64,000 nt of DNA from Desulfobacterales bacterium (GTDB lineage Bacteria; Desulfobacterota; Desulfobacteria; Desulfobacterales; UBA2245). The stretch covers positions 1 through 64,000 of the forward strand of contig JAXGZF010000007.1 in the NCBI GenBank assembly GCA_040771865.1, written 5' to 3'. The position numbers were made by a program. Shown here in pieces: positions 51,001 to 57,000 of this stretch. The number at the start of each line of letters is the position of its first letter. Positions within the stretch are counted from its first letter, which is position 1.

Positions 51001-54000
51001 GAGCAGATCTCCGTCCATGCTGAACAGGGACTCGGTGACCACTGCCGCCTGATCCAGGCCGAGAGCTTCCAGCCGCTTTTTCAGATGATCCATGGAACCG
51101 TGCCGGTATCCGTAAAAATCGGCACCGCTGGCAGCAATGCCCTTCACGCTGCTGGCGTGAATATGCTTGTCGAATATGATCCGGTCCCCAGGCTGAAACA
51201 GCGTGGATAAAACCCCGTAGTTGGTCTGATATCCGCTGGGGAAAAATACCGCGTCCTCATAGCCGAAATACCGGGCATATTCGCGTTCGGCCCGGCCGAT
51301 CAGGGAATAATTGGCCGAAACCAGCCGGGAGGAGGAAGACGAGGCTCCGTATTTCATGACGTTTCGGGCAAGGGACCTTCGCAGCTGGAGGGAGGTGCTC
51401 AGGCTCAGGTAGTCGTTGGAAGAAAAATTCAGTACCTTCCGGTCGCCGAGAAACACGTACCGGCCTTCCCTGCGGGTTATCTGCGGGGGGTTGCGGTACA
51501 GGCCTGCCTGGCGCTGGCTCGTCAGCTGGCGGGCGAACCGTTTTTCAAACATGAAAAAACCTCCTGGTAATGATATTTCAGTATTTCTTCCCGAAAGGCC
51601 CGATCATACGGAACCACGGCAAAAATGCATTCCGCTTCCAGCAAACGCCGACCGTTTTGTTCGGCAGAAAGCGCACAGGTAAAAGCGCTCTCGCTCCGAC
51701 CCGTCAGATTCCCATGAATCAGCAAAGACCCGTTCAACACGTCCGTTCGGGGCAGGACGCATCGGTTGACTTTCAACAAAAAGGCGTGTCTCTCAAATGC
51801 GCACAGATACCGGACATGCAGTGCGCCCAGTTGCGCCATGGCCTCGAGGCCCAGAAAAACCGGCGCGTTGGAAAAAGCCCGAATGCCTTCAATGGCGCCG
51901 GCATCAACCCGAAGTAACCGGTCAACCAGCAGAAAGCGCTTCAATCCCGTTCGAATCGTCATGTCCATCTGCATATCAACAGCGCGGCGTTCTGACCGCC
52001 GAATCCGAAGTTTTCGATCATCATGGTTTGCGGCGCATCCTGAATCGGGTTTCGAACCCAATTGACCCCCGAATGGCAGGGCGATTTCAGGTTTCGGACC
52101 GGCGGAAGCCAGCCCTCCTGCATGCAGAAAAGACAGACCGCCGTTTCCAGTGCCCCGCAGGCGGCTGAAAGATGCCCGAACCAGGACTTCAGGGCGATCA
52201 CCTTTGGCCTCGCTCCATAAACGCGATCGATCAGACCGGCCTCCATCTCGTCGTTGAGCCGGGTACCGGTGCCATGGGCCGACACCGCATCCACCTGATC
52301 CGGCGTCACACCGGCCTCCTTCAAGGCAGCGCGCACCGCCGCCTCAGCCTGTATGCCATCCGGATGCGGAGCGGTCATATTGTATCCGTCCATTGAATTC
52401 CCGTATCCGCACACCTCGCCCAGAATTGTTGCGCCTCTTTTCCGGGCATGTTCCAGGGATTCGAGCAGCAGAAACGCCCCGCCTTCTCCGGGCACAAATC
52501 CTTCCCGCCGGCAATCAAAGGGCGCGTAGGCGGTTTCCGGATTTGCGTTTGCCGTCAAAAGCGCGCCGGCTTTCCGGTAAGCCAGAATTCCGCCGGCGCT
52601 CAGGCGCGAATCTCCGCCTCCGGCAAAAGCCATGTCCAGATAACCGTTCCGGATCCTGCGGAACGCCTCGCCGATGGCCTGAAGCGATGCGCTGCAGGCG
52701 GTACTGATCGTGAGGTTTTCCCCGTGAATGCCGGCCAGGGAGGCCAGAACGCAGGAAGGGGTATTGGGCAGAAACCTGAGAATCCAGAGCGCCTGAAGCG
52801 CGTCCTCGTCGATCCTTCCGGAGCTGATTTCCGGACATTCCCCGCCGATATCCAGATTGGGACCGGTTCCGACAAACAGACCCGCCTGATCCAGCATGGC
52901 CGAATCCAGACCGGAATTTCGAACGGCTTCCATGGCCGCGGCCACGCAGAACTGGGCGCCCCGGCTCAGATAGCGGATATTCTTGAACCGGCCGAGAAAT
53001 TGCCGGACATCAAAGTCGCGAACCGGGCATGCCAGGACCCTCTCATCGACTAGGCTGGGCACAAGGTTGACCCGGTCATTTCTCAGATGATTTATGATCC
53101 GTTCGGGCTCGTGACCCAAAGACGAGATCACTCCGACCGAGGTGATGACGACGCTTCGGGACATCTGGACAGAATGCCGCCTTTCCTTTGAACGGGTTTC
53201 TGGTTTGCTTTCTTTGAATGTGATTGACAAACCGGTCGACAGATGTCGGGCTGTCAGATTTTCCAATAGATTTCAGATACTTTCTTACGATCCACAGCCG
53301 GCGGGTTTTCGTCTGCAAAGCCCACCGAAGCAAAGCACCGAATCTGAATTTCCTCAAGGCCCAGAATCTTTCCGGCATCCGGCATAAAAACCAGCGGGGC
53401 CGTCAGAATGCACGTGCCCAGCCCTAGGGACTGGGCCTTCAGAATAAAGCCTTTCAGCGAAAGTCCGGTTGAAATGTCCATGTCCGCGGCGCTGCGGTCG
53501 TCTTTTTCAATGAGTCCGGCCTCGACCAGGCTGTCGGCAAAACCCGCATGCGGCGCCACGCCCACGGCAAAAAGCGCCGGGGCTTCAAACATGAAATCCG
53601 CAAACCGCCAGTAGACCTTGATCCGCGTTTTCAGACGCTTTGACAGGCCCCTTTCTTCCCAAACCGTCAGCAATCTTTGAAGCCGGTCGGCCATGGCCTG
53701 CTCAAGCGCGTCCCGCATCGAAGCCGAAACAATCCGGACAAAACGCACCGGCTGACTGTTGGAAGGCGAAGGCGCCATGGCCGCGCAGGCGATCATCTCC
53801 TCGATCCAGGCCTCGGGCGGCATATCGGGCCGATATTTTCGAATGCTTCTTCTCTGGCGGACCAGCTGATCCAGGGAAACCATCGCGTCACCGGGTCTGA
53901 TATGCTACAAAACCGGCCAGGTCCTTGACCTTGAGCACCGGTCCGGAATCCAGGTCCGACAGTATTTCCTGGACCCGGTCCGGCGTTAAAAACGGAAACC

Positions 54001-57000
54001 TTTCCATCAGGCAGGGTGCCTTTGCCTGCCCCTTATCCTCGGCCTCGATCAGATACGGCCGCAGGTTTCTCAAAAAAATATCGTTTTCGCTCACCTTGAT
54101 GTTGAAAACGGCATTCAGCGATACGGCGATCTCCAGCATATCGATGGATTCGACGTTCAGATCGCGGATCAGATACGTTTCCGACTCGATGTCGGATGCA
54201 TCGACGTCCAGAATGTCGGCAAGCACCGCATTGATCTTTTCCAAAACGCCCATGTCTCACCTCGCATAAATCATTTGCCGGCCGTCAGGCCGCCGTCCAT
54301 GACGATCTGGGTTGCATTGAATCCCCGGGCGACGTCGGACAGAAAGAAAACAACGCTTCGGGCAACCTCTGTTTCAGTCAGCGCCCTTTGAATCGGAACC
54401 CTGTCCAGCGCCTCTTTTCGGCGGCTTTGCAGATACCTTCGACCCCGGCCCGCGTCGATGTACCCGGGCCTGAGGGTCAGCGTCGTAATCCCCCGGCCTC
54501 CCAGTTCCAGCCCCAGGTTCCGGTAAAGGGCCTCGGAAGCCAGTTTGGCGGCCGCATAAAATCCCTGACCGGCGTTCGCTCTTTCCGCCGCCGCCGATGA
54601 GATGAAAATCAGCCGGCCGCTTCTTTTTCTCAGAAAGACTTGGGCGGCGCGTTTGAGCATCTCCGCCCGGCTGGAAATATTTCGCAGAAAATAGGGTCGA
54701 AATTCTTCTTCCTCAACCGAGGCGACCAGACCTTCCAGATCTCCCTGGGCCAGATCCACCAGAAAGTCCAGGTCTTCCCTTAAATGCGCGAACAGCAGAT
54801 CCGTGGACACGGCGTCGGCAAAATCAAAGCGGACCGCCTCCCATCGACCGGGAAAAGGTTCCAGCGCCTTTTCGATCCGCTCCCTTCCGGCCCCGGTTCG
54901 AAAGGTTAATATTGGGTACAGCGCCTCTTGAATCATCTCCTTTGCCAGACAGATGCCAAGATCGCAGCTTCCCCCGACAATCAGGGCCCTTTGTCCCGAA
55001 AATGTCAGCTGCATGCCCTTAAGATTCCTGTCGCCAGCGCCTGGCTGCCGTCACTCAGTTCGCACCGGAGCACTTCCGTAGATCCATGAATGCTGTATGG
55101 GTAAGACCCGGGCGCCACAAACCTTCTGAACCTGAATTTTTCCGCCGCCTTCGGCCGCGGCATGCCATGCTGCCTGAGAACCTCCAGAAAGGCGTGCAGA
55201 ATCAGGCTGCCCGGAACCACGGGTTTTCCCGGAAAATGGTCCTGATAGATCGGATCAGCCGGGTCAAAAAAGAACCGGCCTTCCAGGTGAATGGATGCTT
55301 CAGGCTCCATCGCGGGTCAGCCCCATCTGCCGGATCATGTCGGTGTCCTGTTCGGGTTTCCGGCCCGCCGTGGTCAGGTAGTTTCCCAGCATCAGCCCGT
55401 TGGCGCCGGCCATGAACACCCAGGACTGGTAATCCTGAAGGGTGACCTCCCGGCCCCCGCAGATGGTGATGTCTTTCCCGGGGTTGACGAACCGGAAAAG
55501 GGCGATGGACTTCAAAGCCTCGAACGGTTCCATCAGGGGTCTGTCTCCAAGGCGGGTGCCGGGAATCGGATTGAGAAAGTTCAGCGGAATACAGTCCACA
55601 TCCAGTTCTTTGAGGGTAAAGGCCAGTTCCACCCGCTGGTCCCAGGACTCGCCCAGACCCAGAATCCCGCCGGAGCACACCTTGAGGCCCCCGGCCCTGG
55701 CCAGTTTGACGCACTGGATATCCTCCTCGTATGCATGGGTGGTGCAGATCCGGTCGAAATAGCTTCGGGCCGTCTCCAGGTTGTGATGGTAGGTGGTCAC
55801 CCCGTTTTCGACCAGCTTTCTGGCCATCGGCAGGGTCAGCATGCCCAGGGACCCGCAGATTTCAAGCCCGGTCTGCTCCCGAATCGCCCGGGCCGACCGG
55901 CATACCCGGTCCATCTCCTGGTCGTTGAGCATGTAACCGCTGGTGACCATCGAAAATTTCCGCGCGCCCGCCGCGTGCATTTCAAGGGCATAACGGAGAA
56001 TCTCTTCTTCGCTTAAAAACGGATAGACGCCGACCCCGGTGTTATGATGGGAGGACTGGGCGCAGAACGCGCAATCCTGGGAACATCGGCCCGACTTGGC
56101 GTTGATGATCGCGCAGGTGAAAACCCGGTCTTTTTTAAATTGCCTGCGGATCCTGTCCGCGCACACGATCAGATCAATCGCGTCCTTTCCGGAAAGTTCG
56201 GCCAGCTGACAGGCTTCCTGATAAGATACGCTGCCGGTTGGATCTTTCAACAGCCTTTCAGTTATGCTAAGTACCCATGAATGAAACATGATCTCTCCTT
56301 CATTGAAAGACCTTCGCACCTGCGGGACAGCGACGGAATTTCAGGTACGCAAAGGGCAAATGAACCAGATTGCCCCTAAATTGTCAACCTGTTTTTGCTT
56401 TATGGTTTACAATAGGATGGGTTTGCCGGAGCTTTCGATATGACCACTAAGGATAAAGTTTTGATTTACCTGAAAGAAAATGATGGGAAATGGGTCTCGG
56501 GCGAGCTGTTGAGCGGCCGGCTTCAAATCAGCAGGGCCGCAATCAGCAAGCAGGTACGCAAATTAAAGGAAGACGGGTATCGAATCGAAACATCCACCAA
56601 GAAAGGATACCGGCTACAGGAGCGCCGGGATCTGCTGCTGCCTCAGGAAATTCAGGAAGGCCTGGGCACCCGGATTTTCGGGAAAAAGCAGCTGGTCTGT
56701 CTGAAAGAAACCGATTCGACCAATATGCAGGCCAAGATTCTGGCCGCAGCTCATGCGCCCGAGGGAACCCTGGTAATGGCCGAGACTCAGACCCTGGGAC
56801 GGGGAAGGAAGCAAAGAGACTGGTTCGCTCCGGCCGAAGACGGGATCTATGCATCGCTGATTTTACGACCGGTCATCGCGCCGGACCAGGCTTCGTGCAT
56901 CACGCTGACAACGGCCGTGGCCGTCGCCGAAGCCCTGATATCCGTCACCGGTCTGGCCGTTCAGATCAAATGGCCCAACGACATTCTGATCCACGGAAAA

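Follow-up and report, generated by a model that had tools for sequence, protein, structure and literature searches.

Results

A BirA-controlled biotin operon

The window (the 64,000-nucleotide stretch of DNA analysed here, positions 1 to 64,000 of contig JAXGZF010000007.1 from a Desulfobacterales bacterium) carries on its minus strand, in this order, bioB, a gene for hot-dog subunit A, fabG, a 121-residue acp, a gene for a nitroreductase-fold flavoprotein (the NTR), fabF, a gene for hot-dog subunit B, bioF, bioD and bioA. Divergent from these genes lies birA (56440..57417, plus strand), whose product, an HTH repressor and biotin ligase, scores above the TIGR00121 cut-off and matches HTH_11. 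The interval between birA and bioB contains a BirA operator-like palindrome with an N14 spacer (56381..56412) that matches the consensus in Rodionov 2004 (PMC545781); this BirA-type pattern gave one match here and none in 100 shuffles.

On the minus strand, the biotin synthase gene bioB (55300..56289) matches TIGR00433 with 395 bits (cut-off 225). It is followed by hot-dog subunit A (55005..55310; 101 residues; Pfam FabA, 8.7e-7), a FabG-like 3-oxoacyl-ACP reductase of the SDR type (54271..55014; profile matches), the biotin-type ACP (53888..54253; PP-binding), the NTR (g01739; 53254..53883; 209 residues; PF00881, 2.7e-27), a FabF-like ketosynthase (51959..53164; profile matches, catalytic triad C157/H297/H331) and hot-dog subunit B (51522..51962; 146 residues), whose start overlaps the fabF stop. 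The 8-amino-7-oxononanoate synthase gene bioF (50398..51552) is named from its operon position and from TIGR00858, which is its best match at 324 bits and lies under the 426-bit cut-off; the dethiobiotin synthase gene bioD (49704..50423) and the DAPA aminotransferase gene bioA score above the cut-offs of TIGR00347 and of TIGR00508 / NF005940, respectively. The bioA coordinates (48397..49749) are the ORF extent, the true start probably lying about 19 codons further in. Gene junctions mostly overlap or span 4-17 nt, the exception being the roughly 90 nt between the NTR gene and fabF.

The locus is a single BirA-controlled operon of the Desulfovibrio type. With the cluster DVU2558-DVU2565 (PMC545781, PMC10102598) it has in common two FabZ-like genes, FabG, a special ACP and FabF, together with bioF/A/D/B, a divergent birA with a BirA site, and the lack of bioC. 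The gene order between bioB and bioF given in the first-pass annotation (two hot-dog genes, FabG, 121-residue ACP, NTR, FabF) is confirmed. Its description of a 'complete' private fatty-acid module is too strong, because FabD lies elsewhere in the genome (C6:192822) and the module is not self-sufficient; the operon contains neither a malonyl transacylase nor a phosphopantetheinyl transferase gene. The same genome encodes two other short ACPs, next to housekeeping fabF genes, and a FabK-like protein. Within this assembly (98% complete) the best BioC match reaches 56 bits, below the cut-off of 185, and BioW gave no match (the control matched in 2/14).

Specialised components of the module

The two hot-dog proteins, which the first-pass annotation called dehydratase halves, are better described as two subunits with complementary active-site residues, His in A and Glu in B. 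Subunit A aligns to FabZ (6n3p) and retains the catalytic His (H25, within an HFPG motif) while lacking the Glu; across homologues the His occurs in 52/52 and a Glu at the FabZ position in 4/52. Subunit B has the Glu of an EAMAQ motif (45/45), lacks the HFP motif and matches nothing in Pfam or NCBIfam, its putative hot-dog fold being suggested by that motif and by Trotter's naming of the second D. vulgaris gene. A split dehydratase gene was considered and rejected: the two proteins are not detectably similar and are encoded four genes apart. In the ApeI/ApeP dehydratase of aryl polyene clusters (PMC8041823), two different hot-dog subunits form a single active site, as may be the case here, where the heterodimer is a prediction; that enzyme serves another pathway, with another product, than the biotin module.

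The biotin ACP differs from housekeeping ACP in that about 45 inserted residues, which form three extra helices, precede its final helix, as seen in the alignment to E. coli AcpP and in the predicted model (pLDDT 89). Its attachment site is Ser36, and both E35-S36-I37-D38 and R65 occur in 82/82 sequences. In a fold search no match reached E 0.001, the nearest being the specialised ACP RPA2022 (E 4e-3).

The module FabF and FabG carry conserved Arg or Tyr residues where housekeeping enzymes are hydrophobic. Arg187 and Tyr196 of FabF occupy the positions of Ala193 and Phe202 in E. coli FabF, with Arg in 53/54 module sequences (Lys in one) and Tyr in 54/54; the four housekeeping FabFs compared have Val and Phe at these sites (4/4). 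We take Ala193 to be a pocket residue of the E. coli enzyme, a point for which no confirming paper was found. FabG has Arg190 (57/58) at the position of Met188 in E. coli FabG, and its catalytic S140/Y153/K157 are invariant (58/58). This SDR was considered as the enoyl reductase and is disfavoured, because its YxxxK motif is of the ketoreductase type; FabI and FabL have a longer catalytic spacing. Judged from sequence, the conserved cationic and polar residues of FabF, FabG and the NTR would be compatible with dicarboxylate substrates.

The nitroreductase-fold protein

The NTR belongs to the nitroreductase (FMN) superfamily, as indicated by a PF00881 score above cut-off, an RRSxR FMN motif and the nitroreductase fold of its predicted structure (pLDDT 95); conservation analysis further identifies a conserved basic helix (K82/K85/R93). 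Foldseek matches to the model include 3eo8, 3gfa and the FbiB C-terminal domain (4xom). The first two are the closest solved structures, neither with a known function; the nearest solved relative with a known function is the FbiB domain (TM about 0.75, identity about 21%), which, according to PMC6450877, uses FMNH2 to reduce a C=C bond next to a carboxyl. CLA-ER, described as an enone reductase with this fold (PMC8174450), is a distant match, and malonic semialdehyde reductase a weak one (E 1e-6).

Several family assignments were rejected. The best NCBIfam match is TIGR03553 (the FbiB C-terminal reductase), at 40.9 bits against a cut-off of 249.55, and the context is biotin rather than F420; BluB, RutE and NfsA score 39, 28 and 30 bits against cut-offs of 150, 152 and 223; and a PF00881 protein, being neither SDR nor PF03060, is not a member of FabI, FabL, FabV or FabK. 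The subfamily is discrete, comprising about 40 clusters above 180 bits, with full-length outsiders at 153 or below. For kinship with the in-cluster biotin NTRs of Trotter 2023, where identity above 40% to those of the Syntrophobacter and Desulfobacter clusters was the criterion, the comparison covered P0036, a protein named 'Syntrophobacter sp.', to which the NTR is 51% identical. A scan of genome contigs with the single NTR protein found one locus only. Complex prediction for an NTR dimer with FMN and biotin ACP gave scores of 0.02 and 0.01, against a mark of 0.32, which weighs neither for nor against an interaction.

Distribution, linkage and loss

The NTR occurs in 27/301 genomes of the order (9%), the earlier figure of 14/101 referring to a different sample, and the special ACP is present in every NTR-bearing genome (27/27 in the order, 7/7 in a phylum sample). 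Its gene directly follows the ACP gene in 76/90 ACP loci. It does not 'always' lie between ACP and FabF, as had been stated: among non-self order loci that order holds in 22/26, three others being cut by contig ends; in G458, where the module including the NTR lies beside radical-SAM genes, a gene for a 2145-residue sensor kinase separates ACP from NTR; and bioF is the next gene after the NTR in family f60.

The NTR has been lost repeatedly from otherwise intact modules. It is absent from 10/90 ACP loci (10 of the 86 that are informative) and from 11/38 ACP-bearing order genomes; one loss is a clean deletion when set against a relative 85-88% identical, another a decayed remnant. Neither in these loci nor in the 10 NTR-less order genomes with a visible slot does a reductase gene take its place. 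Nor was any complementarity found between NTR loss and FabK or FabI: FabK-like genes occur in 23/35 NTR-bearing and 6/13 NTR-less module genomes, while five NTR-less genomes of 91% completeness or more gave no match to the FabK-like and FabI queries used. The FabV search gave 0/5, its control likewise matching nowhere.

Family f60 retains ACP-NTR-bioF in G069, G101 and G401; in G403, NTR-bioF is seen where a contig breaks off. In this family bioB lies on other contigs. Its FabF is of the housekeeping type only, 34-37% identical to module FabF (5/5), and hot-dog B was found in 0/4. Searches of f60 also yielded no FabK-like or FabI gene and neither BioC nor BioW; five HGD-D proteins scanned all fell below the BzdN/BcrC (benzoyl-CoA reductase) cut-offs, two further candidates lying outside that scan. 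Since ACP-NTR-bioF persists here without module FabF or hot-dog B, the NTR is tied to the ACP: it stays with ACP and BioF rather than with BioB or the elongation enzymes.

Discussion

The first-pass annotation proposed the NTR as the enoyl-ACP reductase and held that no paper described this role. The latter is mistaken, the idea having appeared in a 2021 preprint and a 2023 paper. Trotter et al. 2023 (PMC10102598) identify enoyl reductase as the one activity missing from the cluster, report bio clusters with a nitroreductase-like gene (in Syntrophobacter fumaroxidans and Desulfobacter vibrioformis) and suggest that it may encode the missing enzyme; they also find that growth of D. vulgaris in the absence of biotin depends on its module genes and on an unlinked nitroreductase, DVU1220. 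DVU1220, which carries FMN and a 4Fe-4S cluster, is only distantly related to the single-domain, operon-encoded NTR described here. The f60 arrangement, the repeated loss and the polar pocket residues were not found in the accessible accounts of Trotter 2023 and Rodionov 2004. The literature searched yielded no biochemical test of the NTR reaction.

The proposal itself is the best of the readings considered, though neither new nor free of difficulty given the repeated losses and a module that is not self-sufficient. It is strengthened because the NTR keeps to the special ACP and to BioF, and because its structural neighbour reduces a C=C bond; we regard it as modestly probable. The FbiB domain (4xom/4xoo/4xoq; dehydro-F420-0 reductase) shares the fold and an FMNH2-dependent C=C reduction, and differs from the biotin NTR in its substrate and in being fused to a glutamyl ligase. 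FabI, FabL and FabV (SDR fold) and FabK (an FMN TIM barrel) differ in fold and catalyse the reaction proposed here; FabK, too, uses FMN. Counted against the enoyl-reductase reading are the NTR-less loci without a replacement reductase, the lack of FabK/FabI complementarity, the genome's own FabK-like gene, the distant relationship to the genetically tested DVU1220, the closest structures, which have no known function, and the low (about 21%) identity to FbiB-C.

Under the enoyl-reductase reading, pimeloyl-ACP would be made on the dedicated ACP, with no methyl-ester disguise of the BioC/BioH kind. The ACP would presumably be loaded by housekeeping FabD and PPTase; the module FabF would use malonyl-ACP to elongate starters that bear a free carboxylate, malonyl-ACP first and glutaryl-ACP next, and the Arg and Tyr of its pocket may hold the omega-carboxylate; FabG would carry out the first reduction; and a hot-dog heterodimer, with His from A and Glu from B, would dehydrate the product. 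A homodimeric FMN-bearing NTR would then, most likely, reduce the C=C bond in glutaconyl- and 2-heptenedioyl-ACP with hydride taken from NAD(P)H and relayed by the flavin, after which BioF, BioA, BioD and BioB would complete biotin. The NTR would be preferred yet replaceable, with another cellular enzyme covering enoyl reduction where it has been lost.

Alternatively, the NTR may supply electrons or reduced flavin, for instance so that BioB, a radical-SAM enzyme, is activated or regenerated, with housekeeping FabK performing the enoyl step. Many members of the family are flavin/NADH oxidoreductases, DVU1220 with its FMN and 4Fe-4S could feed electrons (PMC10102598), a FabK-like gene is present here as in 23/35 NTR-bearing genomes, and the G458 module adjoins radical-SAM genes; however, in the loci examined the NTR adjoins ACP rather than bioB, and f60, which lacks FabK-like and FabI genes, keeps it with ACP-bioF while bioB lies on other contigs. 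This role seems unlikely. Somewhat less likely still is another redox reaction on the ACP-bound chain, for instance one of a RutE-like or repair kind that reduces an aldehyde or shifted double-bond by-product, and that keeps the ACP productive: the tight linkage to ACP and BioF, the similarity to malonic semialdehyde reductase and the repeated losses, which suit an accessory step, would fit, yet enoyl reduction is the sole activity that the cluster lacks according to PMC10102598, no other missing step is evident, and the best characterised fold neighbour (FbiB) reduces C=C. A passenger role, in which the NTR would be a quinone or nitro reductase of general use with no part in biotin synthesis, would accommodate its loss without replacement from 10/86 informative loci. 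It is nonetheless improbable, given that no member of the subfamily turned up in a genome lacking the special ACP (27/27 and 7/7), that its ACP-bioF linkage survives rearrangement in f60, and that genetics show D. vulgaris to require an unrelated NTR (PMC10102598).

The enoyl-reductase reading can be extended to a bolder one, doubtful when taken as a whole: the NTR subfamily would bring a further fold class to the enoyl-ACP reductases, one specific for enoyl chains that end in an omega-carboxyl and are carried by the long biotin ACP. In f60, where neither module FabF nor hot-dog B, and neither BioC nor BioW, was found, it would invariably close another pimelate route, one so far undescribed. 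The had/oah enzymes of ring cleavage would there supply a C7 dicarboxylate (3-hydroxypimeloyl-CoA); once dehydrated, it would be moved onto the biotin ACP, a transfer for which the PcaD-like hydrolase encoded behind bioD is a possible catalyst, and the NTR would then reduce it. Since f60 yielded neither FabI nor a FabK-like gene, those cells might even use the NTR as their general enoyl reductase.

The locus offers a single-operon test system and the f60 genomes a natural deletion experiment, and residues can be named for mutation: NTR K82/K85/R93, FabF R187/Y196, FabG R190, hot-dog A H25 and the hot-dog B Glu. If the NTR is the reductase, a new fold would be added to the enoyl-ACP reductases and a pimelate route that dispenses with the methyl ester would be complete.

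Organization of the biotin operon

The genome carrying the window (2.98 Mb, 98% complete) encodes on the minus strand bioB (55300-56289), the dehydratase-like subunit hot-dog A (55005-55310), a FabG-like SDR (54271-55014), a 121-aa ACP (53888-54253), the nitroreductase-fold gene (NTR, 53254-53883), a FabF-like ketosynthase (51959-53164) and a second dehydratase-like subunit, hot-dog B (51522-51962), after which come bioF, bioD and bioA; most junctions overlap or span less than 20 nt. Divergent from this operon is birA (56440-57417), and a BirA-type palindrome at 56381-56412, the sole match in the window with none in 100 shuffles, agrees with the consensus of Rodionov 2004 (PMC545781). 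Gene coordinates and order bear out the anatomy given by the first-pass annotation, and a Desulfobacteraceae bacterium, whose NTR is 90% identical, has the same gene order. The annotation's 'complete' private module is an overstatement, however: the operon contains neither a FabD nor a PPTase gene and therefore is not self-sufficient. Outside the operon lie fabD, a FabK-like gene and two housekeeping pairs of fabF and acp; the genome has no FabI, no BioW, and no BioC that scores above cut-off.

Several neighboring and unlinked genes were also recorded. Convergent with birA is a SAM-dependent methyltransferase (57425-58390, minus strand; PF10672, RlmI/RlmK-like) that is not BioC-like, followed by a 766-aa protein that looks secreted and ends in a long Pro/Gln/Arg-rich tail of RP..P repeats (58438-60738, minus strand) and by genes that, judged by their translations alone, resemble glucose-1-phosphate cytidylyltransferase, CDP-glucose 4,6-dehydratase and 3,5-epimerase (61334-63809, plus strand), the start of a polysaccharide cluster. 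Large iterative type I PKS/PfaA-like ORFs of 2012 and 2344 aa that encode KS and AT domains lie elsewhere in the genome, at C9:77116-84526 and C11:2208-9239; an NMO-family (PfaD-like) gene adjoins the one on C9.

Published state and proposed pathway

The window's biotin cluster belongs to an already described kind. In Trotter et al. 2023 (PMC10102598), transposon fitness data show that in D. vulgaris the cluster's five fatty-acid-like genes, as well as the unlinked nitroreductase DVU1220, are required without biotin; the same kind of cluster is reported from other Desulfobacterota orders, and in Syntrophobacter fumaroxidans and Desulfobacter vibrioformis it includes a nitroreductase-like gene. 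A 2021 preprint (10.1101/2021.01.13.426591) uses the same terms. The earlier statement that no paper addresses this role is therefore false: the enoyl-reductase hypothesis is already published, and the role given to NTR here is a prediction. No biochemical follow-up was found in the literature searched, which excluded most subscription papers.

The module very probably acts in biotin synthesis, and we lean slightly towards NTR being its enoyl-reductase. In the proposed pathway malonyl-ACP would most likely serve as primer on the private ACP, which would carry the chain through two rounds of elongation with the omega-carboxylate free; NTR would reduce glutaconyl-ACP and 2-heptenedioyl-ACP, and the resulting pimeloyl-ACP would then be used by BioF.

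Features of the module proteins

The NTR structure model (pLDDT 95) best matches 3eo8 and 3gfa, which are uncharacterized C. difficile flavoproteins; next comes the FbiB C-domain (TM about 0.75, 21% identity), which carries out FMNH2-driven reduction of the enolpyruvyl C=C of dehydro-F420-0 (PMC6450877); CLA-ER, an enone reductase (PMC8174450), is a distant match confined to the N-terminal part. All 91 sequences compared share the FMN motif R11-S13-R15, and a basic helix is conserved (K82 in 59/64, K/R85 in 64/64, R93 in 63/64). For none of the NCBIfam families that it matched does NTR reach the cut-off.

The module FabF retains its catalytic C157/H297/H331 and, at the position of E. coli Ala193, which presumably lines the acyl pocket, has Arg in 53 of 54 sequences and Lys in one. 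At Phe202, the back gate of that pocket (10.1101/2021.02.13.431092), it has Tyr in 54/54, whereas Val and Phe occupy these two positions in four housekeeping FabFs. Likewise FabG, with S140/Y153/K157 intact, has Arg at the position of E. coli Met188 in 57 of 58. These polar residues fit the guess of Trotter 2023 (PMC10102598) that active sites in the module have a less hydrophobic character. Hot-dog A conserves the FabZ His (52/52) and seldom the Glu (4/52), and hot-dog B the EAMAQ-type Glu (45/45) without the HFP motif, which points to a predicted heterodimer with a single active site, like that described for ApeI/ApeP (PMC8041823). The ACP has Ser36, a three-helix insertion of about 45 residues and R65 (82/82); its nearest fold, a weak match, is the specialized ACP RPA2022.

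Co-occurrence of NTR and the biotin ACP

In a set of 301 genomes of the order, 27 have NTR and 38 have the special ACP, and every NTR genome (27/27) has the ACP; among 401 genomes of the phylum the counts are 7 and 10, and all seven NTRs adjoin the ACP. Misses are possible in both sets because just 7 to 14 candidates were scored per genome. The subfamily is discrete: in a profile search of 1.84 billion representatives about 40 clusters exceed 180 bits, and full-length outsiders reach at most 153. The order ACP-NTR-FabF holds in 22 of 26 non-self loci of the order; three end at a contig edge and one, in genome G458, is interrupted. An ACP-alignment search gave 363 metagenome loci, of which the best 80 (a choice biased towards query-like ACPs), together with L001 and nine genome stretches, made up a set of 90 ACP loci, seven short duplicates (L002-L008) having been excluded: NTR follows the ACP in 76, the ACP is followed by FabF without NTR in 10, and four are uninformative. 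As 69 ACP clusters (90% identity), 57 have NTR, nine do not, one is mixed and two are uninformative.

Some loci depart from the usual setting. In G458 (contig C97, L207:27-20000) the module (FabG, ACP, NTR, FabF, hot-dog B) lies outside any bio cluster, with an export system upstream and, on the downstream side, genes for a CofH/MqnC-like radical SAM protein, a ketosynthase-like protein and B12 radical-SAM proteins, and with bioF on another contig; a 2145-aa sensor kinase gene (kinase/GAF/histidine-kinase) separates ACP from NTR. Four contigs from one metagenome (L043, L076, L081, L087) and L016 carry ACP-NTR(-FabF) islands with no adjacent fabG, hot-dog or bio genes. One member of the NTR subfamily (P0113, 51% identity) is labelled as coming from a Methanosarcinaceae archaeon bin, a label due to mis-binning or transfer.

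Loss of NTR

The claim that NTR 'always' sits between ACP and FabF gives way to the kinase interposed in G458 and to the 11 order genomes having only the ACP, 10 of which have FabF directly after it without NTR or a remnant (the other, G623, ends at a contig edge). None of the NTR-less modules examined carries FabI, FabK or another reductase in the NTR position. L074 is a clean NTR deletion relative to L080 (flanks 85-88% identical), a remnant survives in decayed form in L063 (E 1e-10), and L079 may hold a trace; NTR is thus ancestral in its group and was repeatedly lost.

Known reductases do not match this pattern: FabK-like genes are present in 23 of the 35 genomes with NTR and in 6 of the 13 module genomes that lack it. 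Five genomes (G448, G655, G680, G453 and G353; 91-98% complete) have an intact biotin module and, by the queries used (the FabI search covering 29 of 50 genomes), no NTR, FabK-like gene or FabI, which implies an unrecognized enoyl-ACP reductase.

A family retaining ACP, NTR and bioF

Family f60, five genomes of 1.7-2.0 Mb (91-97% complete), is a natural deletion experiment. NTR is found in four: as ACP-NTR-bioF in G069 (C76, L089:4556-8149), G101 (C1, L090:8313-10392) and G401 (C12, L109:1676-5345), and as NTR-bioF-bioD, starting at a contig edge, in G403 (C23, L110:1057-4331). All five carry a single FabF, with 34-37% identity to the module enzyme (versus 58% and 45% for the module copies in G353 and G169), and a single FabZ; hot-dog B was found in none of the four searched, and the only two strong SDR matches in G069 and G101 are the housekeeping FabG and one adjoining had. 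bioB is present in all five, always on other contigs. BioC was below cut-off in the two genomes tested, BioW was found in 0/3, and FabK-like and FabI genes in 0/5.

NTR therefore keeps its place with ACP and BioF where bioB and the elongation enzymes lie elsewhere, an arrangement that fits an NTR step on the ACP-bound chain directly before BioF. That NTR instead supplies electrons or flavin to BioB is unlikely, and as an electron donor to BioB it fits f60 more poorly, since there it is kept with ACP and BioF while bioB lies on other contigs. Somewhat less likely still is that NTR performs another redox step on the ACP, and that it is a mere passenger in the operon is improbable.

Ring-cleavage genes (had/oah/dch-like) are present in f60: had occurs in four of the five genomes, and in G069 both had and oah, which score above cut-off, lie next door, some 500 bp upstream of the ACP gene. 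A PcaD-like hydrolase gene follows bioD in three. A pimelate route starting from 3-hydroxypimeloyl-CoA, a term absent among the literature matches listed, is possible; a scan of five HGD-D proteins for benzoyl-CoA reductase left all below cut-offs. The family possibly combines an undescribed pimelate route with an unknown housekeeping enoyl reductase.

To the published enoyl-reductase hypothesis the present analysis adds the ACP-NTR-bioF core of f60, the repeated loss of NTR, and named residues through which its predicted role may be tested.
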